60,397 bases of DNA from Patescibacteria group bacterium (GCA_041650715.1 JBAZKQ010000003.1:1-60397), one strand, 5' to 3'; shown: positions 1-59,600, counted from the stretch's first letter. The notes: a model not told the origin generated them from the letters alone. Program-made: numbers and translations.

Positions 1-339
<339 letters not shown>

Positions 340-568
340 TAAATTTGATTGACTCGATAGAAACTAATGTTTCTATTGATATGTGATTCCGTTTTTAAAA
401 CGGAGAAATTTTTTATTTACGAATTGATGCCAATTAGCACCAAAATTTTAACCATCACCATGATTGTTTGTTATGAAGTTTTTAACGTTCGAAATAGACA
501 GAAAAAAACAGAGATATAAACAATATCTTGTTTTCGTGTAATATTCTGTTTTAATTTTTGATAAGGTT

Positions 569-20369: not shown

Positions 20370-21029
20370 TTATTCGATAATCTGAATTTTTGCGACTTTA
20401 ACGCCAAATTTTAAGGCATCGCTCCGGTTCTTCATCCAGACATCAACTCGGTTGGGATGTTTTTGGTTCATACGGTCGCGGACAATAAAGATGCGATCAC
20501 CATATAATTCGGGAATTTTAACTTTAGTGCCCATCGGTAAAAAATTGGCGGCGATAGTATCTTCAATCCCGTGCTCACAGACATTAAAGCCATTGGCGGT
20601 TATACAGGGACTATTATCAGTTTGCCCAGCTTCTGAATTATAAGCGGTCATGGTATGGACGCTCTCTTTTAATACTTTATCGACTTTAACAGCGGTGGTA
20701 CCGGTAGCCGCACTCGTTTCACTTATAAGCTCAATATCGGCGACTGGTGCAATCACGGGGGAACTGCTTGCCAGGGCAACCGGAGCGTTGGTGCTTGCTA
20801 ATTTAGCTGCTTCCAAGTCCATGTGGGTATCCTTGGTCATGGAATCGTTAGAAACCATCATTTCCTGGTCAAGTCCTGCGGCCTGTGCTTCCTGAACGGC
20901 TTGGTTGGCCAGGGCGGGAGCGAAAAAAAGAGTAAATTGGAAAATACACGCGATAATAGTAGCTAAAACGATGTTTTGCTTTCTACTGAGGGGGACGATC
21001 TCCTCACGAATGATTTGCATTATTTTCAT
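20370..21029 (-). CDS. Secreted/anchored 3D-domain protein (MltA/RlpA-like DPBB fold, putative cell-wall lytic)
   Basis: N-terminal TM segment. C-terminal MTAYNSEAGQTDNSPCITANG...GTKVKIP...IFIVRDRMN...VDVWM is typical of the 3D domain. Confidence 0.7.
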   Translation of the reverse strand: MKIMQIIREEIVPLSRKQNIVLATIIACIFQFTLFFAPALANQAVQEAQAAGLDQEMMVSNDSMTKDTHMDLEAAKLASTNAPVALASSSPVIAPVADIELISETSAATGTTAVKVDKVLKESVHTMTAYNSEAGQTDNSPCITANGFNVCEHGIEDTIAANFLPMGTKVKIPELYGDRIFIVRDRMNQKHPNRVDVWMKNRSDALKFGVKVAKIQIIE

Positions 21030-21295: not shown

Positions 21296-22162
21296 ATGAG
21301 AAAAAATCTGTATCTGACTGGGATTATCATTAGTATGGTAATGCTCGGTAGCGCCGTGTTCGCTCAAAACACCATCAGCGATCAAAAAAAGATCGATGAT
21401 ATTAATGCCGCGATTCGCGAAAAACAGGCAACAATCGCCCGCATTGATTCGCGTCTAGTTAATCTCGTCGATTACTCGGCGGGGATAAAGAAAGCAACGC
21501 TGGAGATTGACTCAATTGAGTCTGAAAAACCGGAGACTGAAACCGGTAGAAAACTTCAGAAGATTGAAGTAAAACAAAAGATGACCGCGCTTAATGTATT
21601 ACTGAAAAAACAAAAAACTTTCAGTAAATACTCGGGGAAAAAAGTTGAGCGTGATGCTTTAGCTGCGCAAATCATAAAGCTTGAAGCCGAAAAAAACGCC
21701 ATATTTCAGGCGTACATTACGGATACTAAAGTTCCGACGGAATTGAGTCCGAAAGAACTACGCATGCGCGATCGCGGATTTGATGCCAGACATCAAGATT
21801 TAAACGCTAATCGTGAAGAAAGAATTGAGTATAATTCTGCAAAACGCGAAGACCTGACTTTCCGTAAACTGGAAAATAACCCTGTTTATGGAGACTCGTC
21901 AGGATTTATGGGAATTATATCCAATCAGTATTTTGTTCCCGTGATCTTTAGATTTAAATCATTGGATGGTGGCGAAAACAAGGAGCTTTTGATAGGTCCG
22001 GGAAAAATTATTGAAGAAAAATTAATCCCAGGAACTTACGAAGTAACATTTTGGAATGGTTCTCGCCAAATTGGCACGCCGTCAAAATTTACAGTTGATG
22101 CTGTTATCACAAAGTATGACGGCGCCCCCTGTCATTGGTGGGCCTACCAACCCAGGTTTTAG
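21296..22162 (+). CDS. Secreted hypothetical protein (signal peptide, coiled-coil, C-terminal beta-rich domain)
   Basis: MRKNLYLTGIIISMVMLGSAVFA/QN signal peptide. No family recognised. Confidence 0.6.
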   Translation: MRKNLYLTGIIISMVMLGSAVFAQNTISDQKKIDDINAAIREKQATIARIDSRLVNLVDYSAGIKKATLEIDSIESEKPETETGRKLQKIEVKQKMTALNVLLKKQKTFSKYSGKKVERDALAAQIIKLEAEKNAIFQAYITDTKVPTELSPKELRMRDRGFDARHQDLNANREERIEYNSAKREDLTFRKLENNPVYGDSSGFMGIISNQYFVPVIFRFKSLDGGENKELLIGPGKIIEEKLIPGTYEVTFWNGSRQIGTPSKFTVDAVITKYDGAPCHWWAYQPRF

Positions 22163-22244: not shown

Positions 22245-22670
22245 TTAATGCACGCCGCTTGAAGTTCCTTGCGGAGCGCCGGCCCCGCTAAAAGGAATAT
22301 ATTTAAAGACAAAATAAGTAATCGCATAAGCGGCCACGACGATAACCAAACCGATAATCGCGGTTTTAATCGTGTCTTGAGCTTTTTTTACTTGGGCTTC
22401 ATTGCCGCCTGCGGTCATCCACTGGAAACCGGCGGCAATCATTAAGACAACAAAAATCGCACCGAGCAGACCGAGCGCGGCTTGAATAATTGTTGATATC
22501 AAAGAGCCGAGTGAAGTTTGTCCCAAGCCGGCCGTCGTCGCGATTAAACTTGAATTAGTGTCTAATTTTTTTCCGGCCTCACTGTTTGGGTCAAGTAATT
22601 GGGCGGAAGTGGTTGAAGCAAGGATAAAGAGTAGCGATAGACCGGCAATAATATTAATCAATTTTTTCAT
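22245..22670 (-). CDS. VirB2/TrbC-like pilin paralog 1 (last gene of array)
   Basis: Signal peptide, variable segment, TM1, FQWMTAGGNEAQVKKAQ loop, TM2. Confidence 0.75.
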   Translation of the reverse strand: MKKLINIIAGLSLLFILASTTSAQLLDPNSEAGKKLDTNSSLIATTAGLGQTSLGSLISTIIQAALGLLGAIFVVLMIAAGFQWMTAGGNEAQVKKAQDTIKTAIIGLVIVVAAYAITYFVFKYIPFSGAGAPQGTSSGVH

Positions 22671-22681
22671 AGTGTGAAATA

Positions 22682-23095
22682 TTAAGCGCGCAAGATTAAT
22701 TTTTGAAAAATAAATGACCAGATAGCATAAGAGGAAAGGGTAATAACAAGTCCGATAATGGCGCGTTTAATCATGCTCTGGGCTTTCTCTACCCTCTGCT
22801 CGTTGCCAGAAGCGGTCATCCACTGATAGCCGGCGACGACCATAATAATTAGAAAAATAGCACCGAGCAATCCAATCGCCGCCTGGATAATTATGCCGAC
22901 GGTGGCCATTAGTCCGGCCTGTTCAACATTAATATTGTAGCCACCGCTACCGGCGACGGTATTCAATTTGCCCAGCATGGAAGTATCATCTCCAGTCGTT
23001 GTTGTGTTTGTGCTTTGAGCAAAAACGAAATAAGGCAGGATTAAAAGGGCCGTTAAAATTAAGAGGGGGGCGAGATGACTCAAATGTTTGCGCAT
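22682..23095 (-). CDS. VirB2/TrbC-like pilin paralog 2
   Basis: Signal peptide from MRKHL (internal ATG 23095), T-rich variable part, YQWMTASGNEQRVEKAQ loop between two TM segments. Confidence 0.75.
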   Translation of the reverse strand: MRKHLSHLAPLLILTALLILPYFVFAQSTNTTTTGDDTSMLGKLNTVAGSGGYNINVEQAGLMATVGIIIQAAIGLLGAIFLIIMVVAGYQWMTASGNEQRVEKAQSMIKRAIIGLVITLSSYAIWSFIFQKLILRA

Positions 23096-23099
23096 AGAA

Positions 23100-23480
23100 T
23101 TAAAAGTTAAGTTGCGGGCCCAGTATTTTAATAACAAAATAACTAATCGTATAGGCCCCGAGCACGACGATTAGTCCGATAATTGATTCTTTTAAAATTT
23201 CTTTAGCTTTATCTACTTTTTGCTCGTTGCCGGAAGCAGTCATCCAGAGGTAGCCGGCGTAAAAAATAAATATCATGAAAACGCCGCCGAGCAGGGAAAG
23301 AATAGCCGAAATTATATTGCCCAACATGGGCGTCAGTTCACGACTCGTATTGTAGCTTCCGCTATCGGTAGCGGTCGTATTTACAATATTCATCGCTTGT
23401 CCGATACCCGTTCCGTCCGCCAAAACTACCCCAGGCAATAAGAGGAAGAAGGAGATGATTTTGAAGACGAGCCTTTTCAT
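23100..23480 (-). CDS. VirB2/TrbC-like pilin paralog 3
   Basis: MKRLVF signal peptide (ATG 23480). YLWMTASGNEQKVDKAK loop between two TM segments. Confidence 0.75.
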   Translation of the reverse strand: MKRLVFKIISFFLLLPGVVLADGTGIGQAMNIVNTTATDSGSYNTSRELTPMLGNIISAILSLLGGVFMIFIFYAGYLWMTASGNEQKVDKAKEILKESIIGLIVVLGAYTISYFVIKILGPQLNF

Positions 23481-23503
23481 AAGATAGAAGTAGGTCAAAA
23501 AAA

Positions 23504-23905
23504 TTAATTAGAGCCGAAATAACTAATAACAAAATACGCGATTGCGTAGGCGGCGCTAACGATAATTAAGCCGACAATCGCTTCCGTAATCATTTGCTTT
23601 GCCTTGGCTACCTTTTGGTCGTTGCCTTGGGCAGTCATCCATTCTAAGCCAGCCCAAATCATAAAGGCAAGAAAGACTACACCGAGCAGACCAAGGACAA
23701 GTTTGATTACTTCGCCGATGATGAGTTCCGGGCTCGGTGCGTTGCTCGGGTTATAACCGGCATTTGCCCCTGTTGTGCTTAATCCCGTATCAGCCGCAAA
23801 GTTAAAGGCGGAACTGGCCGGCGCGAAAGAGAGAAGGGCTAATAACAAAAAACCCCATAAAAAGAAGGTTTTGTAGATATTATGATTGAAGCTTAATTTC
23901 TTCAT
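23504..23905 (-). CDS. VirB2/TrbC-like pilin paralog 4
   Basis: LEWMTAQGNDQKVAKAK loop between two TM segments. Its start overlaps the stop of paralog 5 by 4 nt. Confidence 0.75.
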   Translation of the reverse strand: MKKLSFNHNIYKTFFLWGFLLLALLSFAPASSAFNFAADTGLSTTGANAGYNPSNAPSPELIIGEVIKLVLGLLGVVFLAFMIWAGLEWMTAQGNDQKVAKAKQMITEAIVGLIIVSAAYAIAYFVISYFGSN

Positions 23906-24303
23906 TTAATAAATTGGTTCGTAACGAAGTTGCCTATAAAGGTCGTAATGGCATAAGCGGCAAAAACAATAACGATACCGATAATAGAATTAACCAATAA
24001 GTCTTTGGCTTTGGTGACGCGTTGATCATTGCCCTGCGCGGTCATCCACATAATACCAGCCATAATCATCATTAATAAAAACAAAACACCGACGAAAGAA
24101 AGAACGATACCAATAATATCGCCGGCCTTGGATTGAATAAAATTCTTTTCTGGAGTTTGACCTTGAAAGGCGGTAACGGCACCGGCGGTTTGATCTAAGC
24201 CGGTAAGCGGATCGCTGGTTGTTACTTGAGCTTGAGCGCCAAAAGCTAAAATAAGAGAAAAACAAAAAACAAAGAGAGAAGAGATAATTATTTTCTTGGT
24301 CAT
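23902..24303 (-). CDS. VirB2/TrbC-like pilin paralog 5
   Basis: IMWMTAQGNDQRVTKAK loop. Start could instead be ATG 24321. Confidence 0.75.
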   Translation of the reverse strand: MTKKIIISSLFVFCFSLILAFGAQAQVTTSDPLTGLDQTAGAVTAFQGQTPEKNFIQSKAGDIIGIVLSFVGVLFLLMMIMAGIMWMTAQGNDQRVTKAKDLLVNSIIGIVIVFAAYAITTFIGNFVTNQFIK

Positions 24304-24321
24304 AGAAGTAAGTTTAGGCAC

Positions 24322-24392
24322 TGCTCTAATCAGAAGCTATTCTTATGATCAGAGCAGCGGTTCCCATTTAAGATGAGAACCACTTAATATGG
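24322..24392 (-). promoter_or_regulatory. Two intercistronic hairpins between pilin paralogs 6 and 5 (possible attenuator/processing site)
   Basis: CTGCTCTAATCA...TGATCAGAGCAG (12-bp stem, 1 mismatch) followed by GGTTC...GAACC. Confidence 0.4.
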
Positions 24393-24803
24393 CTAATTGC
24401 CAGTTGTATTCATGGTTGCTCCGTAAATTTGGGTAATGATAAAGGTTGCGATTGCCCAAGCAGCAAGAATGATGATTAAACCGATAACGCCAGCACCTAA
24501 GAGTTGCTTAGCTTCGCTAACTTTATCTTCATTCCCGGCCGCAGTCATCCATTTAAAGCCACCAAATAAAATGAGGCCCACTGCAATCACGCCCAAGAAA
24601 CCAAGAGCGAAATTGATAATTCTGCCGATAATTTCTCTCGGGTCGCCTTGTGCAAGGCCAGTCCCGATTCCGTTATGAACAGCGTCGATGCCAAATAATG
24701 TGTTCTGTTCAGCTGTTTGCGCTAATGCCGGAACGGCAAAAACGGGCAAAACTAAAAAAGAAATAATGGCAAAGGCGATTAAATGTTTTGAGATTTTTTT
24801 CAT
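24393..24803 (-). CDS. VirB2/TrbC-like pilin paralog 6 (first gene of array)
   Basis: FKWMTAAGNEDKVSEAK loop between two TM segments. Strong SD (AAGGGGGGTGAAAT-ATG on the minus strand). Confidence 0.8.
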   Translation of the reverse strand: MKKISKHLIAFAIISFLVLPVFAVPALAQTAEQNTLFGIDAVHNGIGTGLAQGDPREIIGRIINFALGFLGVIAVGLILFGGFKWMTAAGNEDKVSEAKQLLGAGVIGLIIILAAWAIATFIITQIYGATMNTTGN

Positions 24804-24930
24804 ATTTCACCCCCCTTCTTTTTATTGTATTATTATTTCACATCTCTAATTTTAGCATATTATTTAAAACAAGACAAATAAATTCGTCCATGTTAAAATT
24901 AAGCATAGTTGGGGATAAGTAAATATTTTT

Positions 24931-26481
24931 ATGTTGATATTAGGTAAAAAAATTAATTTTAGGGCAGTTTTTTGGATAATTTTCTTTTTTTTCGTCTTCG
25001 GGCTGCTTTTGCGCAACTCTCTCAGTTATTTAGACCCTGATTTGGGTTGGCATTTGAAAGTTGGTCAGGAAATTTCTGCGAGTGCTCAAGTTCCGCACTT
25101 AAATATTTATAATTATACATTTACAGGCAACTGGGTTGATCACGAATGGTTGTCGAATTTAATATCATTCCAAATTTATAATTATTTTAATTATTTTTAT
25201 TTAAATATTTTCTTCGCTCTCGTTATTGTTGTTTCGTTACTGATAATTTTTTTAGTCGGCAGAAAAAAATATCCCGGTGCGCCTGATTGGCTTTGGGCGA
25301 CCCTAATTTTATTCGGCCTCATTGCCTCTCTGCCCCACTTCGGTGTGCGCATGCAGGAATTCGGTTTCTTATTTCTGGCTTTTGAGTTGTGGATTATTTC
25401 CGCTTACTCGCGAAAAAGAAAATGGCCTCTTTTATTTCTATTCCTGCCGCTTTTTTATTTGTGGGCCAATATGCACGCCAGTTTTTTAATTGGACTCGTT
25501 CTGCTATTTGCTTGGCCCTGGAGTCAATTACTTATTAAACGCTTAAATTGGAAAAATTTATTTGTTTATAGCGGGCTTGGAGTATTAGCTTTCGGCCTGA
25601 CTTTTTTAACGCCTTATCGAAGTGAACTCTATTCTTTTTTAAGCGGCTACCGCCACACTTTTTATATGGGCGTGATTCAAGAATGGGCGCCGCAATTTTA
25701 TTTCCCTCTAAATTATTGGCAGCTATTATTTTTATCATTAACCTTATTAGTTTTTGGTTTATATCTATATCAAATTTATCGCCAGCAAAAAGGTAAAATT
25801 AAACTTTGGGAATTTAGTCTTTTAGTTTTATTTATTATTTTAAGTTTTCGCTCACGCCGGCATTTTCCCTTGTTAGTCGTTGTCGCCTTGCCTTTCTTGG
25901 CGGATGCTCTGACAAGTTTATTGGACCTGGAGCAAGCTAAATTTATATTTAAGCAAAATATTTTAAAGTATTTAATTTGGCTGACTCTGATTTTAGCGAC
26001 CCTGGCGCAGTTCATTGCTATCCGCCCGGTGAACAATCCTTTTAGCCATTACTGTGAAAAATTTCCCTGCCGGGCCACTCTATTTTTAAAAAATAATGAG
26101 CAGTATAATAATTATAGGCTCTTTAATGACTATAATTGGGGAGGTTATTTAATCTGGCAAATACCCGAACGAAAGTTGTTTATTGACGGACGTTTACCGC
26201 AAGCCGATTTTTCCGGGAAAACATTAATCGAAGAGTATCTTAGTTTTTACGAGCCAAAAGCTGATCTATCGGCTAAGTTGAATCAGTATGATATTAAATT
26301 AGTACTTATTAAAACCCATGATGATCGATTGAAATTTAAAAAATGGGAACAAATTATTTTCCGCCTAAAAGAAAATCAAAACGAAACACCGAATTATCTC
26401 CGGACGTATTTAGAAAGTTCTCCGGAGTGGCAAAAAATATATAGGGATCCTTTTGCCAGTATATATTTGAAGAAGGATTAA
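24931..26481 (+). CDS. Polytopic membrane protein, possible GT-C-fold glycosyltransferase
   Basis: 516 aa, >10 TM segments, acidic first external loop (LDPDLGWHL...VDHEWL), soluble C-terminal domain. Family not firmly recognised. Confidence 0.4.
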   Translation: MLILGKKINFRAVFWIIFFFFVFGLLLRNSLSYLDPDLGWHLKVGQEISASAQVPHLNIYNYTFTGNWVDHEWLSNLISFQIYNYFNYFYLNIFFALVIVVSLLIIFLVGRKKYPGAPDWLWATLILFGLIASLPHFGVRMQEFGFLFLAFELWIISAYSRKRKWPLLFLFLPLFYLWANMHASFLIGLVLLFAWPWSQLLIKRLNWKNLFVYSGLGVLAFGLTFLTPYRSELYSFLSGYRHTFYMGVIQEWAPQFYFPLNYWQLLFLSLTLLVFGLYLYQIYRQQKGKIKLWEFSLLVLFIILSFRSRRHFPLLVVVALPFLADALTSLLDLEQAKFIFKQNILKYLIWLTLILATLAQFIAIRPVNNPFSHYCEKFPCRATLFLKNNEQYNNYRLFNDYNWGGYLIWQIPERKLFIDGRLPQADFSGKTLIEEYLSFYEPKADLSAKLNQYDIKLVLIKTHDDRLKFKKWEQIIFRLKENQNETPNYLRTYLESSPEWQKIYRDPFASIYLKKD

Positions 26482-26492
26482 TTAATATGTAG

Positions 26493-27239
26493 ATGGATAA
26501 TTGTATGTTGGTAGAAATTTGCTTGCCGATGAAAAATGAAGACGAAATAGTCCGAGAAAATTTACTAAAAATTCTTCGTTTTTGTAAGCTCGCTAATTTC
26601 CCGTTTAACTGGAAGATTATTGGTATTAGCAACGGCTCCAGCGACAAGACGGTGGAAATTTTACGCGACCTAAAAAAACTATACCCGGAATATGTGGATT
26701 ATATTGATAGCCCGCTTCCCGGAAGAGGTCGGGCTTTAAAAAGTTACTGGGCAACGAGTGCGGCTGATATTTGGGCCTATCTTGATATTGACTTGGCGGT
26801 CTTGCCTGAACAATTGCCGGATTTAATTATGCCCTTAGTTACAGGTGGGGCAGACATCGCCATCGGTTCACGTTTGATTTCTGGAGCCAAAATCGAAAGA
26901 TCCGAATTTCGCGAATTCATTTCCCGTGTTTTTAACTTAATGTCGCGTTTGGTGCTGGCGCATAAAGTAAGCGATTTGCAATGCGGGTTTAAAGCTATTA
27001 AAGCCGAGACCTATCGAAAAATCCTCCCCTATCTGCGGAATGATTTTTGGTATTTTGATTCGGAGCTAATTATTATCGGTCTCCATTTTTCTTATCGCCT
27101 GAAAGAAGTCCCGGTTAATTGGGTGGAGAATAGGTTTAAGCAGCGAGCCAGTAAGGTAAAAATCGTTAAAGATATTTTAAAATTTTTGCGCGATATGGTA
27201 AATCTGCGCTGGCGCCTATTCTTTATGCCGAAAAAGTAA
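26493..27239 (+). CDS. GT2 polyprenyl-phosphate glycosyltransferase-like (GtrB/ArnC/DPM1 type)
   Basis: NGSSDKT, LDIDL (DxD), DLQCGFKA motif. Confidence 0.75.
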   Translation: MDNCMLVEICLPMKNEDEIVRENLLKILRFCKLANFPFNWKIIGISNGSSDKTVEILRDLKKLYPEYVDYIDSPLPGRGRALKSYWATSAADIWAYLDIDLAVLPEQLPDLIMPLVTGGADIAIGSRLISGAKIERSEFREFISRVFNLMSRLVLAHKVSDLQCGFKAIKAETYRKILPYLRNDFWYFDSELIIIGLHFSYRLKEVPVNWVENRFKQRASKVKIVKDILKFLRDMVNLRWRLFFMPKK

Positions 27240-28636: not shown

Positions 28637-29296
28637 TTAGTTTACTAAGATTTGTCGGGTCACGACTTGCTCCCGGCTATATTTCTTTTTGGCCTTAATT
28701 ACGATGTTATTTAGGCCCTTTTTCAAATTAACGGTTTGGGAAAAGTAGCCGTCATGATTATTAAGCACGATTTCGCCGTTGATTTTTACTTCCGCCTCAA
28801 CTTCAGTTTGGCCGCTTATCTCGATGCTGGTACTTGTAACTGCCAAGTTGTTGGCCGGCTGGGTGATTGTTAAATCGGGAGGCAGAACGATATTTTTAAA
28901 ATAAAAGATAAGATATAGAAAGCAAATTATGATTGCACCGATAATCAGTAAGTTGCGGATTATTTTCGGAAAAATAAGAAATTTATGACGCGCGAGTATT
29001 TTTCGCGAAAAAGGGTCATCGGGCGATACCATCAGAATCTCGTCATCCCAGTCTTTCAATATTTCCTTAAGACTGATGCCCAGGTAGTTGGCGTATTCCT
29101 TAAGAAATTTTTTTCCGTAAAGGCCGGATGGTAAATTATCAAGGCGCTCATCTTCGAGAGCGCGCAGATATTCTGATTTAATATTAATTTTTTTGGCAAT
29201 GTCCTCTATTTTTAGATTTTTGAAAAGCCGACTCTGACGTAATTTTTCTCCCCAGGTTTCAGTGTGGCTGATTTTTTTAGGTATGAAGGCGGTCAT
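28637..29296 (-). CDS. RodZ-like HTH membrane protein
   Basis: N-terminal HTH (LKIEDIAKKINIKSEYLRALEDE), single TM segment, C-terminal beta domain. Confidence 0.65.
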   Translation of the reverse strand: MTAFIPKKISHTETWGEKLRQSRLFKNLKIEDIAKKINIKSEYLRALEDERLDNLPSGLYGKKFLKEYANYLGISLKEILKDWDDEILMVSPDDPFSRKILARHKFLIFPKIIRNLLIIGAIIICFLYLIFYFKNIVLPPDLTITQPANNLAVTSTSIEISGQTEVEAEVKINGEIVLNNHDGYFSQTVNLKKGLNNIVIKAKKKYSREQVVTRQILVN

Positions 29297-29754
29297 GAAT
29301 TTTTATTTTGGGAAGATGGAAAGACATAGGAAGTAAGTTCCATCTTGGTGGTGCTGCCTTGCCAATTAAGACCAAGCGAGGCCAAAACAAATTTAATAAT
29401 TAAATAACTTGAGAAAACAATTAAGAGACCGATAACCGCGGCGATAATAATTTTTCGAGCTTGGCCAACTTTTTCACTGCTGCCCCCGGAAATTAGAAAA
29501 GTGAAGCCGCCATAAATAAACATGATTAAAGCCAGCGAGCCAATAATGCCCAGTATCCAGCGCGATGCCCCAATAGCGATTGCCATAATATCGTTCAGCG
29601 AGTAATCCCCATTATCGTAGGGCCGACTGGTAGTTCCGACGCCAGTTGCGTTTGGATTAATAATCGAAGATTGCGCCCGTGCGACTAAGGGTAGAGAAAA
29701 AGATAAAGCGATAATGATCGAGAGCGCGGACCCTAAAATAATTTTTTTAAACAT
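29293..29754 (-). CDS. VirB2/TrbC-like pilin paralog 7 (divergent, orphan)
   Basis: Signal peptide and two TM segments flanking FTFLISGGSSEKVGQARK. Its stop overlaps the RodZ-like start (ATGA). Confidence 0.65.
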   Translation of the reverse strand: MFKKIILGSALSIIIALSFSLPLVARAQSSIINPNATGVGTTSRPYDNGDYSLNDIMAIAIGASRWILGIIGSLALIMFIYGGFTFLISGGSSEKVGQARKIIIAAVIGLLIVFSSYLIIKFVLASLGLNWQGSTTKMELTSYVFPSSQNKNS

Positions 29755-40149: not shown

Positions 40150-40594
40150 CCGTCAAAAAACAACGCGATTATAATCGGGTTGTTTTTAAATAGAAAGCCC
40201 TAATCAGTAAATGATCAGGGCTAAAAAAGCTTACCACGACATGCGTCCACAGCTTCGGCCTAAATATTTCCCCCTGGATAACAAATTCAGCGATCGAAAA
40301 ATGATCAGTATTTAAGTTAGGGGCCTTAGCCGGTGGTCTGGAAAAAAGTCCATGCAATGAACAAATTTTTTTTCTTTTAGTTAGCAGAGGCCACAGTCGG
40401 TCAACGATTTATATTGAATACGACTTATATGGGCTGGGTGTGGCATTTCTAACTTTCAGCTTCTTTGGTGTTTTTATTATATCATTTGTTGTGTTTTCAG
40501 ACAAATAATAATTGAAAAATGCTTTAATAACAGCTATAATTTAATTTACGTATTAATAGTGGTAACAATACTTATTATATATTGTATTATATTT

Positions 40595-41884
40595 ATGAGA
40601 AAAAAATTGGGGTTAATGGTCATTATAGTGCTCGTCGCAATACCTTTATTGCGCTGGTTTTTTATTGAACCCTTAAATTTCCGTTTTTTTAACTTTATTG
40701 GCACGATGACCAGTCTTGGTCAAATCACCGGGATTGTCGGCCTAACCCTGTTTTCGCTCAATCTTATTTTAAGTGTGCGCATTAAAGCGGTCGAAAGATT
40801 TTTTTATGGTTTGGATAGAATTTATGATAATCATCATAAAATTGGAGCGATTTCTTTTTCTCTCCTGCTTTTCCATCCCCTGTTTTTGGTAGTTAGCTAT
40901 TTGTCAGTTTCGCTGCGTGCGGCGGTAGATTTTTTTATGCCTTTTACTGATATACCAATTACTTACGGCATAGTCGCCCTGTTCCTAATGATTATTTTAC
41001 TGGGTCTGACTTTTTATTCTAAACTACGTTATCACCGCTGGAAATTTACACATAAATTCATGGTTTTAGCTTTTGTTTTTGCTCTCTTGCACTCATTAAC
41101 AATCTCAAGCGATATTTCCCGAGATGCTTTTCTGCGTATTTATTTATTAACACTGGGTCTGCTTGGCTTGGGGGCGGGATTTTATCAGGCCGTCCTAAGC
41201 CGTCTATTCAATTCTCATGTGCGCTATAATTTGAAAGCCGTTAACATAATTAATGCTCGTACGGTCGAGTTGGAACTGGAGCCAAAGACCAAAGGAATTA
41301 AATTTTATCCCGGACAATTTGTTTTTATTCGCTTTTTGGCGGGCGATATAAAACCGGAATCCCATCCCTTTTCCATAACTACGGGCGAGGAGGGTGCTAA
41401 CCTACATTTGGTGATTAAATCATTAGGCGACTTTACCGGGCAAGTAAAAAAATTAGTCCCGGGCATACCGGTGGACGTTGAAGGACCTTATGGAAAGTTT
41501 TCACATTTAAATGTGGCCAATAAAAATCAGATATGGATTGCCGGTGGCGTCGGAATTACGCCCTTTATAAGTATGGCCAGAAGTTTAAATACGGATGATT
41601 ATAAAATTGATTTGTATTATGCGGTTAATAGCGCCGATGAAGTTGTTTTGTTAAATGAGTTAAAAGCAATTGAAACCAGAAAAAGCCTGCGTTTAATTCC
41701 TTGGTACACGAACGAAAAGGGATATTTGAACGCGCGCGCAATCTCAGGACTTAGTCCGAATTTGGAAAACAGCGATATTCTAATGTGCGGCCCGTCGGCA
41801 TTTATGTTTAGTTTGCGTCAGCAATTTGTCGACCTGGGCATTAAGAAAAAACATATTCATTTTGAAAATTTTAAACTCCTATGA
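40595..41884 (+). CDS. NOX/FRE-type transmembrane flavocytochrome (ferric-reductase TM domain plus FAD/NAD(P)H-binding domain)
   Basis: Two TM His pairs (HHKIGAISFSLLLFH, HKFMVLAFVFALLH), FAD motif HPFSIT, NAD(P)H motifs GGVGITP and CGP. An alternative GTG start lies at 40559. Confidence 0.8.
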   Translation: MRKKLGLMVIIVLVAIPLLRWFFIEPLNFRFFNFIGTMTSLGQITGIVGLTLFSLNLILSVRIKAVERFFYGLDRIYDNHHKIGAISFSLLLFHPLFLVVSYLSVSLRAAVDFFMPFTDIPITYGIVALFLMIILLGLTFYSKLRYHRWKFTHKFMVLAFVFALLHSLTISSDISRDAFLRIYLLTLGLLGLGAGFYQAVLSRLFNSHVRYNLKAVNIINARTVELELEPKTKGIKFYPGQFVFIRFLAGDIKPESHPFSITTGEEGANLHLVIKSLGDFTGQVKKLVPGIPVDVEGPYGKFSHLNVANKNQIWIAGGVGITPFISMARSLNTDDYKIDLYYAVNSADEVVLLNELKAIETRKSLRLIPWYTNEKGYLNARAISGLSPNLENSDILMCGPSAFMFSLRQQFVDLGIKKKHIHFENFKLL

Positions 41885-42882
41885 AAAAACTAGTCACAAT
41901 TTCTTTATTTATTTTTTGGGCGGTTGTGGTCGCGATTATTGTTGCCGGCTTGCTTTTTTATCATAATAATCGGACAGGGTTAAATAATGGCTTTAAATTA
42001 GCTTTTGTTAATAGTGGAAGCATTAATAATAATGATTTGGCTACATCAACCCAAGGCACTCTTACGGACGCAAAGGGGAATCCACTAACGCCTTTGGCCG
42101 CAAAAAGCGTTGGCGCAATTAGTACTCTTTCGCTCTCTGAAATTGCCAAGCATAATTCAAATGGTGATTGTTGGTTGCTCATAAATAATAATGTCTACAA
42201 CGTGACCAGTTTTCTGTCTGCGCATCCCGGCGGAGCCGGTACGATAATTCCGTATTGCGGACGAGAAGCCACTCAGGCTTTTAATACGAAGGATATTGGT
42301 AGTTCGCACTCAAATACAGCGATCAGCATGCTAAAGGATTATTATATTGGTTATTTAAATGAAGTTTTTACCGCAAAGACAATTCCAAGTACTCCGGCTG
42401 GTCAAGCCGGTGTCGGCGGGGCGACAAAAGCAATTTCTGGTTCGAGTAGTTCTGCTAACACAGCGACAAAGCCGGTAGCGGCAGTTTCTTCACCGGTAGC
42501 GGCAGTTTCTTCGGGCGGGGCGAGCAGCTCTTCACCGACAGCCGCCACCCTAACTTTAAGTATGGCGACAATTTCCACTCATAATAATGCCAAAGATTGT
42601 TGGCTGCTTATTAATAGTAAAGTATATAATGTTACCAGTTTTATATCTGCGCATCCCGGCGGAGCCGGTACGATAATTCCGTATTGTGGTCAGGAAGCAA
42701 CCCAAGCCTTTAATACCAAGGGGGGAAACACCCCGCACTCGAGTACTGCGGCCAGTATGCTCTCCTCATACTATATTGGAGATTTAAACCAGGCGACCAG
42801 CCAGCAGCAAGTGCAGCAAAGCGTGCAGACGACTAACGCGGTTGCGCCGACGACCAGAGACGGCGAGGATGATGATGACTAA
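41881..42882 (+). CDS. N-terminally anchored protein with two cytochrome b5-like heme-binding domains
   Basis: Two copies of ...CWLLIN..VYNVTSF.SAHPGGAGTIIPYCG.EATQAFNTK....HS.TA..ML..YYIG. Both axial His positions are present. ATGA overlap with the upstream gene. Confidence 0.75.
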   Translation: MKKLVTISLFIFWAVVVAIIVAGLLFYHNNRTGLNNGFKLAFVNSGSINNNDLATSTQGTLTDAKGNPLTPLAAKSVGAISTLSLSEIAKHNSNGDCWLLINNNVYNVTSFLSAHPGGAGTIIPYCGREATQAFNTKDIGSSHSNTAISMLKDYYIGYLNEVFTAKTIPSTPAGQAGVGGATKAISGSSSSANTATKPVAAVSSPVAAVSSGGASSSSPTAATLTLSMATISTHNNAKDCWLLINSKVYNVTSFISAHPGGAGTIIPYCGQEATQAFNTKGGNTPHSSTAASMLSSYYIGDLNQATSQQQVQQSVQTTNAVAPTTRDGEDDDD

Positions 42883-42973: not shown

Positions 42974-43999
42974 GTGAGTACATTAAAAAAAATCCAGATT
43001 GGCATTATTGCCAATAGCACTTCAGCCTCCAATCGGGAGGAGTTAATCGCCGAGCTTGGTCCACCTGAAAATGGTTTTTTTGGGCCCTTGGAAGCGACTT
43101 ATGGTGATTTAAATATCGCCATTATTCCACTTGATATACAGCCTAACGATCCTACTACAATCGAGGGAAACAAGAAGGGCCGGGCGGCGCTCCCCGGAGC
43201 GGTGGAATATTTAATCCATAGGGGCGCAGAAATAATTGATTTTGCCGCCTCGACTAAAAGATTGCCCGCTAACAACGGTCGAGAAATGAAGGAAAAATAT
43301 CCCGATACAGTTTTCACAATTGGTGACAACGCGACGTCGATTTCTCTCCTGAGCGTGATTGCAAACTCATATCAGAATTTGCGTTTCGACCCTAAGAGTG
43401 GCTCGGCTGCCTGTATGGGCGACGGGTTTATGGGCCGGACAGCCCTGAATTTCATGCTGGAAAAAAAATGCGAAAACTTGGTGTTGATTAGCCGCCACGG
43501 TAATAATCTTCCGTCGGCGGTGCGTAGAGTCGAAAAAGTCGACAATATTAACCCTGGAACCCAAATGTTTTTTAGCTGCGCTCATAACCATCTGGTGGAG
43601 CCTGAAGCATTTAGGCGGCTCCTTGATCCGGCGTCAATTATTATTGATGTCGCTGCCCCCTTTGGCATAAGCCAGGCTGTTTATTCTGAGCTGCCCAAAA
43701 CGGTCGAATTATTTCATGCCGGCAGTTTCTTTTTAGAAAAAATTAAGTACCAATTTCCGCCTAATATCCTTTCTTTTCCTTTGGTAGGATTCTGGTACGG
43801 TTGTTTTACCGAAGCGGTAATGTTGATGCTGGCGAAACAAGACGGTATTGATTTGCGGCCATATAATTTTTTCGGAGTTAATTCAGATAGCAGCCGCTTA
43901 CTTTATCGGTATTTGCAGCAGGAAGAAGTCATGGTACCGCTGATTAATTTTTATGCTCCAGAGAAGGGTATAAAATTTAGCCTTTTAAGTAGGGAATAG
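42974..43999 (+). CDS. Acyl-ACP-reductase/shikimate-dehydrogenase-like Rossmann protein (divergent), function unknown
   Basis: Strong SD AAGGAGG plus GTG start. By-eye similarity to cyanobacterial acyl-ACP reductase layout (IGIIANSTS vs GLIGHLTS; CFTEAVMLML vs CFAEAMLLEF). Glycine motif reads MGDGFMG. Confidence 0.35.
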   Translation: MSTLKKIQIGIIANSTSASNREELIAELGPPENGFFGPLEATYGDLNIAIIPLDIQPNDPTTIEGNKKGRAALPGAVEYLIHRGAEIIDFAASTKRLPANNGREMKEKYPDTVFTIGDNATSISLLSVIANSYQNLRFDPKSGSAACMGDGFMGRTALNFMLEKKCENLVLISRHGNNLPSAVRRVEKVDNINPGTQMFFSCAHNHLVEPEAFRRLLDPASIIIDVAAPFGISQAVYSELPKTVELFHAGSFFLEKIKYQFPPNILSFPLVGFWYGCFTEAVMLMLAKQDGIDLRPYNFFGVNSDSSRLLYRYLQQEEVMVPLINFYAPEKGIKFSLLSRE

Positions 44000-47967: not shown

Positions 47968-49371
47968 TTAATTACGGATGTTTTTCGTACCGAAGCTTTG
48001 ATTATAATTCAATAGTCCGATAAAAGCCAGCAGCACCCAGAACATTACGGAGAGGTCATTCTTAAAGTAAGGCACGTCGACTAAGCCGTGGACAATTATC
48101 GCGATTAAAGCACTTAGTAGTCCCAAGGCTAAATATTTTTCCGGATGCCCCTCGCGATGATAGGTAAGTGTCAGCTTAAGAGAAATATAAAGAGCGCGCA
48201 CGAGCAGCCACATAAAAGTTAAGGCGCCGAGCAGGCCAATTTCGCTCCAGAAGTTCAGGAATATATTGTGGGGATACATATAAATTTCCACTGGCTGCCA
48301 ATATTTAGTACGCAAAGTTGAGCTGGCCCGTAGTTGCGCATCAAAATTAGGCAGATTATCGCTGTTGAAAAAAATGCCTTCTTGATGATATGGAGCGACA
48401 GCTGCCTGGTAGTTATCGAGGCCCGCGCCGGTAATGAATTTGGTACCGGTTAAGGCCAGTAGGGTTTCTTTCCATTGGCGCTGGCGGATTTGGCCGGATA
48501 AATCGTTAAGAGTTAACTTGGTCATCACGAAGTTTTTTGTCGGTGCGAAGTAGAAGACGCCCGCAATTACTACGGCCGTTAAAATTAAGGTCGCAATTCT
48601 TTGGCGTCTGCCGGCGAATAGGCCAAAAATTAGTAATCCCGCGACCACGCCGATTAAAGCTCCTTCGGAGCGGGCGAAGTAGATAGATAAAAGCGCGCCG
48701 GCGATAACCAGCATGATAAGAATTTTCTTAAAAGTTTTGCTGAGCGTCGTTGTGTGAGGTAAAGAAAAAAACCAGCCGAGGAAAACTAAAACAAGTGGGG
48801 CCAGATATAGGCCGACGGCGTTTGGATAGCCGAAGAATGATACGACGCGCCGGGTTGCCTCGTTCGCCCAAAAGGGATTAGCGATTAAATTACCGGTAAT
48901 TTTTTGGTAGATTGCTAAAATTGAAACAGAGGCGGTCGAAAGTAGTAAGGCCCAGAGAATTTTTTGCCAGTCTTTTTTTTCGCGGAAAATATTTATGACG
49001 AGAATAAAGACAAGAATCGGTTCGAAAAAATAAGCTTTCCAGATTCCGAGAGCGCCCAAATTAAAATTAGCCACGCCGACGGCAACGAATGAAAAGATTA
49101 TTAGTAAAATAATTTCCAGGGCGAAAGGATAGGGAACGCGCGCCGAACGATTTTTTAATTTATGTTTCGCTTGCGGGAGCCAGGATTTGAAGAACCAAAC
49201 GGCGAAAGTTAAAAGGATCATAACTTCCAGTACGGTTGAGGGTATGCCGAGGACAGAAAAGCGGATTAAATAGCTCGGCAGGGCGGCAATCAGCAAAAAC
49301 AAAGCGTAGTCCAGGCGCCAGAGGGCCAGAGCGAAAAAACAAACAGAAAAAATTATTATTCCTATCATCAT
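47968..49371 (-). CDS. O-antigen ligase/Wzy-like polytopic membrane protein
   Basis: 467 aa, ~12 TM segments, external loop with conserved Arg/His region (HNIFLNFWSEIGLLG). Confidence 0.6.
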   Translation of the reverse strand: MMIGIIIFSVCFFALALWRLDYALFLLIAALPSYLIRFSVLGIPSTVLEVMILLTFAVWFFKSWLPQAKHKLKNRSARVPYPFALEIILLIIFSFVAVGVANFNLGALGIWKAYFFEPILVFILVINIFREKKDWQKILWALLLSTASVSILAIYQKITGNLIANPFWANEATRRVVSFFGYPNAVGLYLAPLVLVFLGWFFSLPHTTTLSKTFKKILIMLVIAGALLSIYFARSEGALIGVVAGLLIFGLFAGRRQRIATLILTAVVIAGVFYFAPTKNFVMTKLTLNDLSGQIRQRQWKETLLALTGTKFITGAGLDNYQAAVAPYHQEGIFFNSDNLPNFDAQLRASSTLRTKYWQPVEIYMYPHNIFLNFWSEIGLLGALTFMWLLVRALYISLKLTLTYHREGHPEKYLALGLLSALIAIIVHGLVDVPYFKNDLSVMFWVLLAFIGLLNYNQSFGTKNIRN

Positions 49372-52810: not shown

Positions 52811-53671
52811 TTACATGTTCAGAGCTTTTTTCTTTAGATTATTCATTTGTCGTTTTTCCTTTATCGTTTGATGTATAAAGGCGAACGCGATAATGATAAA
52901 AATATAAACAAGAAACAAGAGATTAAAATGAAGAGTAAGGATAAATGCTCCAATAAAGCCCGCAACGATGGCAACGAGTCCAATTAACGCTATTAGGCGG
53001 GACACAAACCACCATATGGCTAATAATCCTGATAATAGAAAAAGCCAAATTTTCTTCTTCACTCTTGCCTTTAAGTAATCCGGTATTTTTTCTTCATCAT
53101 ACTTCTCTAATTTAACTGCCCCCCACAATAATAAGGGTAGAAAAAGGACAAATATTAACCAGGTTATAATATCATCGTGAGCCTCTGTCTCCGCTTTTTT
53201 TACTAATTTCGTTTTTAAGATGATGAATTTTAAATGTGAGTCGAAGAAAATAGTCCCAACAGCCGAAAGTTGTTCCTTATGACAATAGGTTCCAGTCCAA
53301 TGTTCTTGTCTCTCAGCTTCGCTCATCCAACGATTCCAGGTTACGGGCTTACCCGCGTTAAGATAGGCATTGATAATCTCCTCGGAATAGAGAAGTGTCT
53401 TAACTCCGCCAGTAATGAATATTGTGTCGAGAATTGAGTCTACTTTAAAATTTGCGGCATCAGTATACGTAATCGTTCTCTGCGCGGGATTAAGTTTGCT
53501 ACTTTTTTCTTGCTGGCCGTCACTAATGGTGACGAACAAAACCAGTTTGATGAGCTCGCCCTTTTTTTCGGCGATTCTATAACTGACCCTGCTAGGGTCG
53601 ATTTTTACTGCAGCCTTTATGTAAGGCGTAAAAATACAGGCAAATACAAAAATTACAAAGATTTTTTTCAT
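52811..53671 (-). CDS. Hypothetical protein: signal peptide, extracytoplasmic domain, C-terminal multi-TM block
   Basis: 286-aa ORF. No family recognised. Confidence 0.5.
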   Translation of the reverse strand: MKKIFVIFVFACIFTPYIKAAVKIDPSRVSYRIAEKKGELIKLVLFVTISDGQQEKSSKLNPAQRTITYTDAANFKVDSILDTIFITGGVKTLLYSEEIINAYLNAGKPVTWNRWMSEAERQEHWTGTYCHKEQLSAVGTIFFDSHLKFIILKTKLVKKAETEAHDDIITWLIFVLFLPLLLWGAVKLEKYDEEKIPDYLKARVKKKIWLFLLSGLLAIWWFVSRLIALIGLVAIVAGFIGAFILTLHFNLLFLVYIFIIIAFAFIHQTIKEKRQMNNLKKKALNM

Positions 53672-56649: not shown

Positions 56650-59600
56650 TTAATACTCAAAGGCCCCTATGTCCGGAGCGGAGCCGTTATAGGGCAGGCC
56701 GACGTTTATTCCTGCGTTTATAGCGGGAGATGTTGCTTGGAGATGAAAATCGGAAGAGATGAATAATGGATCAACCTTCAGATTGTTTTGCGTTGTATAA
56801 TTTAATGGATTGCCCACAGTGAATAATGGATTATTATTATTACCATTTCCAAACATAATATTATTGGATATATTTAATCCATTAATATTGGCGGCATTAC
56901 TTGCAGTGATTGCGGCTGATTCAAAGTTTTCTATTATATTATTAATTATATGAATATTTTTAGCAGAAGAACACACAGGTAATCCTATTCCCCAATAAGT
57001 ATTCGAAGTTAAGTTGTCTATAAATACATTATTATAAATAAACACGCCATCAACCGTATAATTTGTTATTCCTGAAGCACCTGAAAATAGAATTGCGTAT
57101 CCAAATTGATTATTAGACATTCCAATATTACTTCCTATATTATTATTAATAGTAATATTTTTTAATAAATTTCCGCTTCGTGGGATGAAACTTATGGGAA
57201 CGGCGAGATTCCTTAATGTATTATTAGAAATAATAACCGTGTCAGCATAATATTCAATATATATTCCTCTTTCTTCTTGAGATTGTACTGAATTGGGGCC
57301 GATTATGTTATCGTGTATGTTTGTGCCATAAGAATATGCTCCTTTCGTAATGTTATTTATATCAATAGACCCGACAATAGTATTATTGAAGATTTCAAGA
57401 CCAGATTCATTCCATAGTTCTACTGCAAAATCGAAAGTCATATTGTCGTAAGGTGCTTTTGTTAGATTATTAGAATAAATCTTTAATCCTTTATTGTATC
57501 CACTATTATAGAATTTTATATCATATCCATTATTACCCACCGTCCGACTATTTTGAATTAATTTATTATTATAAATTAACATTCCTTCTTGGCCCCCTAT
57601 CTGTAAATTTCCTCCACCCCCAATAAACGCCGCGGAGTTGCTTATTGTAGAATTATAAACCTGATTTCCAGTGGCATAAACAGTCGGAGCGGCATCAGCG
57701 TAATCTACTCTGCCACCAAAAGTAACACCTTGCAATAAAAAGTCTTTAACAATAATGTCATGAAATATGACCTTACTTCTTCCTCTAACGGCAATAGCAT
57801 ATTTAGCATTCATCCCACCATCAAGGGTTATTTCACTAATAGACTGATTTCCACTGGTGCCTTCCGACGGTGAAGCTAATTGAATAACCCCAATTCCTTC
57901 GCCGGCTGCTTGGTAGCTAGAAGAGATTAGCGCTGTATCCTTAGATGATCCCTTAATACTAACGCCAACGGCAAGGTTGCACTGCTTGGTTTCTGCATAT
58001 GTTCCCGCGTTAACATAGATAGTGGAACCAGCAGTTGTAACAGAACTGCATGCTTTGTAAAGAGTCTTCCAAGGGCTATTTATGGTTCCTTGGTTGGTGT
58101 CGTTTCCAGTGGGCGAGATGTAGTAAGTGTTCAGAGGGGAAGGAGCCAGGGTTATGGTTATCATTCGGCTCATAGGTGTCGAGATATTTCCAGCCGCATC
58201 TTTGGCCCAGGCGTAAAGAGTCTTTATGCCCTCAGTCGCGAAAGTATATACAGAAGGGGCAATAGTAGACCAAGAACTATTGTTCGCCAAAGGCACGGTG
58301 GCGCTTTCGGTAAGAAGAAAACCCGTCACCCCTAAATTATCGGTGGCAGTAAGGGCAGAGATAAGTACAGAAAGCATGGAAGAGGTGTTTGGAATATTGA
58401 AATTTAAAATTGAGGGCTTGGAAGTGTCAGCGGCATAATTACTTTCAAACGCCCCCATGTCAGGAGCTGACCCGCTATAGGGCAGGCCGACGTTCACGCC
58501 TTTATTTATTGCGGGCGACGTTGCTTGGAGCTGAAAGTTGCTTGCTGAGACAAAGAGGGGGTTTTGCTGAGTCGTATTGCTGGTCGGGATATTATTTGAA
58601 TAGCTGTAATTTATCATGGTGCCAATATTAGCCGGTAAGAAAAATGGCAGCACGTTGGCGTTACTTAGATTATAAGCGAGGTTATTTTCAATATGTAATC
58701 CGTCGATAGCGCCGTTATTAGCTATACGGATTGGACCCTGATTGGTAAAATAGGTGAGTATATTATTTTTAATGTTAATATTTTTTAAGTTGCCGCCGGC
58801 AATTTGGGTACTGCCCGAGTAGGTACCGGTAGTTAAATCAATCCCCGCCATGTGCACAATATTGTCAGTAACGAAAGTATTATTATAGATATTGAGATCG
58901 GATATTATCGAGGTTTCCCGGGCACTGATTCTTAACCCGCCATAATAAAAGCTCGAGCCATACATAAACGTCATGAGATTTCTATAAAATGAAATTGTCG
59001 TCAGATTTGAATATACATTGGTGGTGCTGTGGACGTTTAGAGGATAGAGCGCGTGGCTGAATACATTATCGTAAATTGAAACATTTTTAGAATATAGAGG
59101 GTATATTGAAACTCCATAATACCCATATTCAAATGTATTATTATAGACTAAAATATCGGACAATTCCACCACCGACTCAAGTACAATGGCATTTTTACCA
59201 CGATAGCTTGTTCGGACAGAACTTGAAATTGGGGTAAATAAATTACCGTGAATTGAGACAGAATAAGGATAAGAACCTTTATAGCTATGGCTTCCCCCAA
59301 TATCAATCGGAATATCGCCACCATGAAATTCGTTATTATATATTTCTAGTCCGCCTTCGATATCCCAAAACTCTAAGTGAAAATTCCAACCGGTCGGCAG
59401 TGAAATAGCAGTTGCGCCACTTGGGTTTAAATCTGCCCCTTCATCATCTGGCTTATAAGATTTATTGTTGTAATATTTTACATTTTTAAAATGTCGTCCG
59501 CCCGCATTCATAATGTTTCCGTTGTGGCCTTGTGCGCGACTGTTTTCCGTTAAAAGATTATCATGAATTAGCATGTCGCTTTGGGCGGTTATATAAATTA

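Follow-up and report, generated by a model that had tools for sequence, protein, structure and literature searches.

What does a bacterium do with six different pilin genes in a row when nothing that could assemble pilins is encoded beside them? The question is raised by a 60,397-nt contig of a Patescibacteria group bacterium (GCA_041650715.1, JBAZKQ010000003.1:1-60397; the whole of this stretch is called the window below), in which positions 22245-24803 of the minus strand hold six co-oriented, closely packed genes of the T4SS_pilin family, named A through F in transcription order. Patescibacteria form a large part of bacterial diversity, and their lifestyle appears to be one of attachment to other microbes; the sole genetically tractable species needs both a type IV secretion system (T4SS) and a pilin array for it. 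Our answer for the present locus, to which we give a probability of about 60%, is that the array encodes the subunits of a putative filament, or of a channel, assembled by a T4SS encoded elsewhere.

Six divergent pilin genes in one operon

The array is a real feature and was rightly identified by the initial annotation: open reading frame (ORF) calls and alignments both confirm six adjacent minus-strand genes of 126-141 amino acids (aa) with one shared architecture (Table 1), the start codons being the ATGs that gene calls in close relatives also choose. Because the intergenic gaps from A-B through E-F are 89, -4, 23, 4, and 11 nt, the negative value marking a 4-nt overlap of the stop of B with the start of C, the six genes fit a single operon. 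In alignments of the seven pilin copies of the window (the array and one solo gene), the N-terminus is rich in Lys and Arg and leads into a hydrophobic stretch that ends in (A/S/V/T)-x-A, with Gln directly after the Ala in 5 of the 7; we infer from this that A-F carry signal peptides, with cleavage predicted by signal peptidase. There follows a poorly alignable variable segment of about 26-36 aa, shorter than the 30-50 aa first estimated, and then a first transmembrane segment (TM1), a conserved loop, and a second (TM2). The loop of the array members has the consensus W-M-T-A-x-G-N-[ED]-x-x-V-x-[KE]-A; it is conserved in all six, as had been claimed, but the Lys that had been called invariant is Glu in A. 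Pairwise identity within A-F runs from 30% to 46%, and the locus is a VirB2-like array in the sense used for Patescibacteria (PMC12102498, PMC10633639), where the term covers two or more pilin-family genes of low mutual identity, either in tandem or with one gene between them.

The tandem count of six stands, but the window total is seven. The additional copy lies about 4.5 kb from the array, is 23-30% identical to A-F, and has F-L-I-S-G-G-S in place of W-M-T-A-x-G-N. Its neighbors are a solute-binding protein gene on one side and an HTH_25 (RodZ-like) gene on the other, an arrangement kept in related loci. No eighth copy was found when a hidden Markov model built from the seven pilins was run against the six-frame translation of the window.

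The named homologs, among 1966 matches, belong to Candidatus Falkowbacteria, class ABY1, of the Patescibacteria, and the six-plus-one layout recurs in many of these relatives, which are metagenome-assembled genomes (MAGs). The operon is chromosomal, in the Falkowbacteria-like genome of an ultrasmall bacterium; an exact look-up of one window pilin in an assembly index gave no record. From a scan of species-representative genomes that returned 592 matching stretches we kept 80 loci; their arrays hold 3-12 pilin genes, the shortest ones being cut by contig ends. In the full set of loci, the window included, 53 have exactly six. The conserved block that surrounds the pilins runs, in order, through SMC, ComM, a solute-binding protein, the solo pilin, HTH_25, a methyltransferase, a 127-aa membrane protein, UPF0102, a GT2 glycosyltransferase, a membrane protein of about 520 aa, the six pilins, two unknown proteins, PPDK, Lgt, and an MFS protein.

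Table 1. Pilin genes, expression signals, and flanking genes of the array, in window coordinates
Feature	Position	Strand	Description
Paralog A	24393-24803	-	First gene of operon; 136 aa; PF18895 39.9 bits
Paralog B	23902-24303	-	133 aa; PF18895 37.7 bits; PF04956 24.0 bits, below cut-off
Paralog C	23504-23905	-	133 aa; PF18895 41.0 bits
Paralog D	23100-23480	-	126 aa; PF18895 51.6 bits
Paralog E	22682-23095	-	137 aa; PF18895 31.9 bits
Paralog F	22245-22670	-	Last gene of operon; 141 aa; Gly/Ser-rich C-terminal tail; PF18895 40.2 bits
Solo pilin paralog	29293-29754	-	153 aa; PF18895 33.3 bits
Extended Shine-Dalgarno site	24807-24818	-	GAAGGGGGGTGA; 12 nt, ends 3 nt before ATG of A
Divergent intergenic region, array/GT-C gene	24804-24930		Candidate promoter TTGTCT-17-TAAAAT, minus strand 24877-24849
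GT-C-fold membrane glycosyltransferase (predicted)	24931-26481	+	516 aa; no Pfam family; divergent from array
GT2, polyprenyl-phosphate sugar synthase-like	26493-27239	+	248 aa; directly 3' of GT-C gene; Pfam Glycos_transf_2
Unknown gene	20370-21029	-	219-aa membrane-anchored protein; conserved; downstream of array
Unknown gene	21296-22162	+	288-aa protein; conserved; predicted to be secreted; coiled-coil region

Relationship to VirB2/TrbC pilins

The assignment of the six genes to the VirB2/TrbC-like pilins of the T4SS_pilin family, enriched in the candidate phyla radiation, is upheld by two kinds of comparison. First, A-F all exceed the PF18895 (T4SS_pilin) gathering cut-off of 26.6 bits, with scores of 31.9-51.6 bits, as does the solo copy, and the shared pattern is thus not due to chance. 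Second, when an alignment of 118 pilin family sequences was compared by hhalign with eight annotated VirB2/TrbC proteins from conjugative plasmids, a probability of 70% and E = 4.1e-5 were obtained over 56 columns, with TM1, loop, and TM2 in register and G-x-x-W-M at the loop start common to both families. At the profile level, then, a likeness to true VirB2/TrbC proteins is detectable but weak, suggestive and not decisive. In NCBIfam the only match was to NF045849, across the whole hairpin and below its cut-off (25.3 vs 40 bits). An AlphaFold2 (AF2) model of C, built from 118 family members, has helices at residues 8-26, 59-91, and 96-132, with a predicted local distance difference test score (pLDDT) of 86-95 in the hairpin and low confidence in the variable segment. 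The family is a very large one: at E <= 0.001, a library clustered at 50% identity yields 79,508 representative clusters of it.

A translation signal on the first gene

Gene A is distinguished from its neighbors by an extended Shine-Dalgarno (SD) site, for which the consensus among relatives is GAAAGGnGGTGA. A match of at least 5 nt to the anti-SD precedes A in 89% of the 53 six-gene arrays, as against 8-9% for B-F, and is found before only 2 of the 52 other genes of the window (4%), in a genome that makes scarcely any use of SD sites; ribosomal protein S6, L19, and EF-P genes of the window have no such SD. The two other window genes that do bear one are at 42974-43999 (plus strand) and 47968-49371 (minus strand), the latter Wzy_C O-antigen-ligase-like, and the window's own 16S rRNA gene (1-345, minus strand) contains only the 5' 357 model positions, its 3' anti-SD end lying outside. 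Against the four closest loci, moreover, no other gene of the array is as well conserved as A (95.5, 79.4, 74.0, and 52.1%), and the synonymous divergence (dS) of its core from the closest relative (L004, 5897-6304) is 0.14, where the other five genes have 0.9-2.4. The low value may have come about by codon selection in a highly expressed gene or by recent exchange between lineages. Given the exceptional SD, the best conservation, and the low core dS, the product of A is most likely the abundant, major subunit, as judged by translation signal and conservation. In the intergenic region shared with the divergent GT-C gene, TTGTCT-17-TAAAAT is a candidate promoter of the pilin operon; promoter-consensus sites are not above chance in number there, and the TAAAAT box is at the same position in close relatives.

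Proposed assembly and the points that weigh against it

As in VirB2/TraA, the pilins would leave through Sec, lose their signal peptides to signal peptidase I, and then lodge in the membrane as helical hairpins, presumably with the Lys-rich, conserved loop in the cytoplasm and the two termini on the outer side. A T4SS of the VirB4/TrsD type, encoded elsewhere in the chromosome, would extract the subunits and polymerize them into a pilus-like filament or conduit. To judge from the F- and T-pilus structures, its lumen would be lined by the conserved loop, and the variable N-terminal segment with its many Ser, Thr, Gly, and Asn residues would be exposed; such a placement of the two parts would explain why the protein is conserved inside and variable outside. 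A would be the major subunit, and B-F together with the solo copy would be scarcer, specialized subunits of the same assembly. The notion of a distant T4SS has precedent in published data, in which pilin genes are not near virB4 in 813 of 1,948 VirB4-positive patescibacterial assemblies (PMC12102498). For Falkowbacteria in particular, the tabulated VirB2 genes are at consecutive positions and flagged "VirB4 proximity: No," VirB4 lies with TrsD 43-404 genes from the VirB2 arrays, and genes for the type IV coupling protein (T4CP) and PrgI-like proteins are scattered (PMC12102498 Table S3).

A number of points weigh against this proposal. The plainest is the absence of T4SS genes within 60 kb of the array. 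A Pfam search of nearly all ORFs of at least 100 aa in the 60 kb, which small divergent parts could escape, found no VirB4 (PF19044, PF03135, and similar), VirD4, VirB6, or relaxase family, and so extends to the whole window what had been noticed for 20 kb on either side. A VirB4 gene in the window would have been detected, since published patescibacterial VirB4 proteins do match PF19044 (PMC12102498). What the window does contain are housekeeping and envelope genes, such as those for PPDK, Lgt, LspA, SMC, ComM, RNase J, EF-P, SSB, and ribosomal proteins, along with TsaD/E, YchF, solute-binding proteins, and glycosyltransferases. The sole T4SS-type match outside the pilins, a 286-aa membrane protein at 52811-53671 (minus strand) that carries a signal peptide and, toward its C-terminus, four transmembrane segments, was considered as a PrgI (VirB3-like) protein, but at E = 0.022 and 15.8 bits against a cut-off of 27 it is probably noise.

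The same holds for the relatives. In about 90 related loci, ORFs of at least 350 aa that lie within 10 kb of an array and have no counterpart in the window were clustered, and ten of the largest or closest were checked together with every cluster having a Walker A motif; among these large or Walker A ORFs there was no T4SS machinery. The neighbors identified were PNPase, FtsK, H+-PPase, NusA, class A penicillin-binding proteins (PBP1), FtsH, DnaA, IF-2, RecA, UvrA, and an M23/LysM peptidase. As the identifiable neighbors are all housekeeping, it follows that arrays in ABY1 are regularly apart from T4SS ATPases. The M23 peptidase with LysM is found 377-462 bp from the array in some lineages (L037, 7185-8513; L074, 7044-8366), and M23/LysM-type proteins have been counted as VirB1 substitutes (PMC12102498). 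A match named "Saccharimonadales," tried as a patescibacterial VirB4 control, proved to be the same Falkowbacteria-type locus. Public taxonomy labels look mistaken here, in that one protein of such a locus bears the Saccharimonadales name and many GenBank MAG records with the Falkowbacteria-type locus (L012, L014, L016, L022, L024, and others) are titled "uncultured Gammaproteobacteria bacterium."

The step that places the T4SS elsewhere rests on the published Falkowbacteria tables, our own data being one 60-kb contig, and the link to a T4SS at all rests on family homology and co-occurrence. The homology itself has its negative side. While PF18895 bore out the proposed family for six of six genes, PF04956 (TrbC/VirB2, cut-off 27.9 bits) did not, with scores below cut-off for B (24.0 bits) and A (16.9 bits) and no match for the remaining array genes. 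Foldseek of the C model against PDB gave no match at E < 0.5, and the top 50 were generic helical hairpins, ATP synthase subunit c and ING4 among them, with no pilin; because the hairpin fold is so simple, this test is uninformative for pilins. The pilin family profile run against PDB sequences likewise returned chance matches only. Moreover, the division into major and minor subunits would be one of translation signal and conservation, not of protein abundance, and a pilus made of such proteins has not yet been seen in any patescibacterium.

Natural fusions and the possibility of a membrane ring

The hairpins could stay in the membrane and form a ring, channel, or scaffold in the manner of proteolipid c-subunits, whether inside the T4SS translocon or independently of it. 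We regard this as unlikely, and much of what bears on it comes from natural fusions of the pilins. Single polypeptides exist in which 2-17 pilin hairpins are joined by linkers, those with 4-17 hairpins having no internal signal peptides; in one case a two-hairpin fusion of adjacent array members lies inside a six-hairpin array, and in another three single pilin genes come after a six-hairpin fusion. Examples of such fusions are proteins P0001, P0002, P0004, P0241, P0244, and P0247 and the loci L103 (10001-10780) and L102 (76-1743). Duplication and fusion are typical of ring proteins, ATP synthase subunit c was among the best-fitting small targets of Foldseek, the Lys-rich loop follows the positive-inside rule, there are no adjacent T4SS genes, and T4SSs of monoderms are normally without pili (PMC12857230). 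Yet the homologs are pilins, which in their resting state form just such a hairpin in the membrane. The fusions imply that hairpin units function as neighbors whose two ends lie on one face, an arrangement that suits a filament equally well. Finally, long, variable, low-complexity extracellular segments and a strong expression signal on A fit an exposed polymer better than a ring.

Positional orthologs and the question of antigenic variation

The initial annotation had left the choice between a multi-subunit fiber and antigenic or host-range diversification. The latter would make A-F a repertoire of interchangeable pilins whose differing exposed segments help the cell escape recognition or attach to different host strains, an idea put forward for virB2 paralogs in Bartonella and Anaplasma and, with some reserve, in Patescibacteria (PMC12102498). 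In its favor, the paralogs diverge mostly in the N-terminal segment, which is presumably exposed, array size ranges from 4 to 12 genes between lineages, and at larger evolutionary distance the variable part evolves about 4 times faster than the core (nonsynonymous divergence, dN, 0.56 vs 0.13).

The comparison of relatives nonetheless speaks for fixed genes. Against the closest locus, identities at the same position are 89-97%, while across positions they are 28-42%. When each gene was matched to the 52 other six-gene arrays, the best match was at the same position 49 times for A, 48 for B, 43 for C, 26 for D, 45 for E, and 48 for F, 259 of 312 overall, which leaves D as the least stable position; one-to-one orthology by position is still seen at about 50% identity. 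The ratio of dN to dS (omega) gave no sign of diversification when variable and core parts were compared: for the closest relative, the variable segments have a dN of 0.051 and the cores one of 0.025, dS is near or above 1, and omega is about 0.02-0.03 in both, and even at the larger distance pN stays below pS. The segments are, then, "hypervariable" between paralogs and not between orthologs. The array DNA has no invertible elements and, beyond the conserved core, no repeats or inverted repeats fit for switching or gene conversion.

Taken together, positional orthology, purifying selection, and the lack of switching DNA argue against an antigenic repertoire and for fixed, non-redundant subunits; the single tight operon, with no long shared DNA for gene conversion, and the fused di- and poly-hairpin proteins, which suggest co-assembly, point the same way. 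A-F do not look like interchangeable antigenic variants, and we consider that account improbable, so that of the two options first offered the multi-subunit one is favored and diversification disfavored. What our comparison adds to the literature is that A-F, to judge from their sequences, are old positional orthologs under strong purifying selection and non-redundant.

A glycosyltransferase pair beside the array

Divergent from the pilin operon is a membrane protein gene whose >540 homologs are all annotated as hypothetical. The AF2 model of its product is of high quality (pLDDT 90.6; predicted template modeling score 0.90), and Foldseek against PDB matched it with probability 1.00 to STT3 of the oligosaccharyltransferase (OST; E 1e-7; TM-score 0.61-0.66) and also to AglB, PglB, DPY19, and ArnT. 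We are confident, on the strength of this predicted fold, that it is a GT-C glycosyltransferase closest to STT3/AglB/PglB. Residues D35, D37, and H41 of the first extracytoplasmic loop, where GT-C enzymes have their catalytic acidic motif, are invariant in 52 homologs, as are Y401, W403, and G404. It was rejected as an OST as such: there is no WWDYG motif behind the last transmembrane helix, and the site reads N-W-G-G-Y, with the acidic residue missing. Among PDB sequences, the adjoining GT2 protein is most like the dolichol-monophosphate mannose synthase 5mlz (E 7e-14) and next most like ArnC; its NCBIfam matches (AglJ, Dol-P hexose transferase, ArnC, and PgfS) are all far below their cut-offs. 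A donor synthase together with a GT-C enzyme is a classical pairing.

The GT-C gene is divergent from the array and within 400 bp of it in 42 of the 75 arrays with enough flank, and the GT-C/GT2 pair stands beside arrays in two different chromosomal contexts, a third context being without GT-C. GT-C may be a functional partner of the pilins. Ser, Thr, Gly, and Asn make up 37% of the variable segments, against a background of 22%. Sequon-directed N-glycosylation was rejected, as 624 variable segments contain 224 N-x-S/T sequons where shuffles predict 223 (z = 0.06), and the count equals expectation in arrays with and without GT-C alike. That GT-C/GT2 glycosylates the pilins, perhaps in O-linkage, is only a hypothesis, and the pair could equally serve wall polymers. 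A more specific form of the proposed assembly would have A-F as obligate co-subunits of a heteromeric VirB2-type structure, one made in bulk by virtue of its rare, strong SD and five minor, with the fusions marking them as structural neighbors and their Ser/Thr-rich segments glycosylated by the neighboring GT-C/GT2; we hold this full combination to be rather improbable, but if true, it would be the first glycosylated multi-subunit pilus of T4SS type, and in a monoderm at that. A fiber wholly independent of a T4SS, built by another machine or by self-assembly after Sec export with GT-C/GT2 as its dedicated modification system, would accord with the array never being beside VirB4 in the ABY1 loci and tables examined and with the pair accompanying it in two genomic contexts, but is very improbable given that Falkowbacteria encode VirB4, TrsD, PrgI-like proteins, and T4CP elsewhere (PMC12102498), that the homologous arrays of Saccharimonadia form part of the T4SS cluster and share its essentiality (PMC10633639, PMC12857230), that the window has no evident alternative assembly machine, and that third-context arrays go without GT-C.

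Other genes of the window

On the downstream side of the array there are two conserved unknown genes (Table 1). The C-terminus of the 219-aa protein is weakly like the C-terminal wall-binding region of Bacillus EntA/EntD (NCBIfam, E = 5e-6), with no match in Pfam or PDB, and the protein could be a wall-remodeling, VirB1-like hydrolase. Farther away, 56650-60198 (minus strand) encodes 1182 aa with pectate-lyase-like repeats and a choice-of-anchor Q domain, no Pfam match being found, and the product is probably a large surface protein or adhesin. The stretch 40559-42882 (plus strand) encodes first a membrane flavoprotein of 441 aa that resembles ferric reductases and then a protein containing two cytochrome b5 domains; redox proteins of this sort may come as a surprise in a lineage described as having no respiratory chain.

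Comparison with known systems

In the type IV pilus loci of Pseudomonas aeruginosa, TfpW, a GT-C arabinosyltransferase, or PilO/TfpO, an oligosaccharyltransferase, is encoded beside pilA. The present locus is alike in having a membrane glycosyltransferase gene next to pilins with Ser/Thr-rich, presumably exposed segments, but its pilins are of another superfamily, have no N-x-S/T excess, and are only hypothetical acceptors. The Mbov_0395 family of the Mycoplasma integrative and conjugative element (ICE), described by NF045849, is also a two-helix pilin-like protein, in that case of the T4SS of a wall-less monoderm, but it is a single gene in the ICE conjugation module, and the score of our genes is far below its cut-off.

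With the VirB2/TrbC proteins of Agrobacterium and other mating-pair formation systems of type T (MPF-T), the array members have in common a signal peptide whose last residue is Ala, with Gln next to it, two hydrophobic helices joined by a short loop, and the G-x-x-W-M loop start; CONJScan T_virB2 also matches Falkowbacteria pilins (PMC12102498 Table S3). Unlike in MPF-T VirB2, the loop is rich in Lys and exceeds the VirB2 loop by about 7 residues, and the mature N-terminus has an extra variable stretch of 26-36 aa. Moreover, the window has seven paralogs, whereas the MPF-T clusters examined have a single virB2, and there is no adjacent virB1, virB3, or virB4 in this monoderm. The virB2 clusters of Bartonella and Anaplasma phagocytophilum, as summarized in PMC12102498, are similar in their tandem divergent copies and in their variation in exposed parts. 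They differ in that they are interpreted as antigenic or host-interaction variants of animal pathogens, while here there are stable positional orthologs under strong purifying selection.

The closest parallels are within the phylum. A published catalogue of 383 patescibacterial assemblies with VirB2 arrays lists 441 of these, each made up of 2-11 genes, with identity inside an array averaging 25% and reaching at most 54% (PMC12102498), a range that includes the 30-46% found here. The initial annotation's statement that no function has been shown experimentally for such arrays is outdated: in Southlakia epibionticum a six-gene VirB2-like cluster within the T4SS locus is essential by transposon sequencing (Tn-seq), and Saccharimonadia arrays within the T4SS cluster are co-essential with the T4SS (PMC10633639, PMC12857230). 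The array type, its detachment from virB4, and an experimental phenotype in a relative are therefore already known. Our array is like that of S. epibionticum ML1 in Pfam family, phylum, and tandem arrangement of divergent hairpin pilins, and, by coincidence, in having six genes; unlike it, it has no T4SS cluster nearby but housekeeping neighbors, a GT-C/GT2 pair, and a solo seventh copy. It belongs, moreover, to class ABY1, in which detached arrays have been tabulated but not discussed (PMC12102498). In sum, the locus is no new kind of system but a clear, if ordinary, example of a published class, and its value lies in the constraints it puts on models of the ABY1 arrays: a fixed six-plus-one set of pilins, a first gene marked by an SD, a GT-C/GT2 companion, and multi-hairpin fusions.

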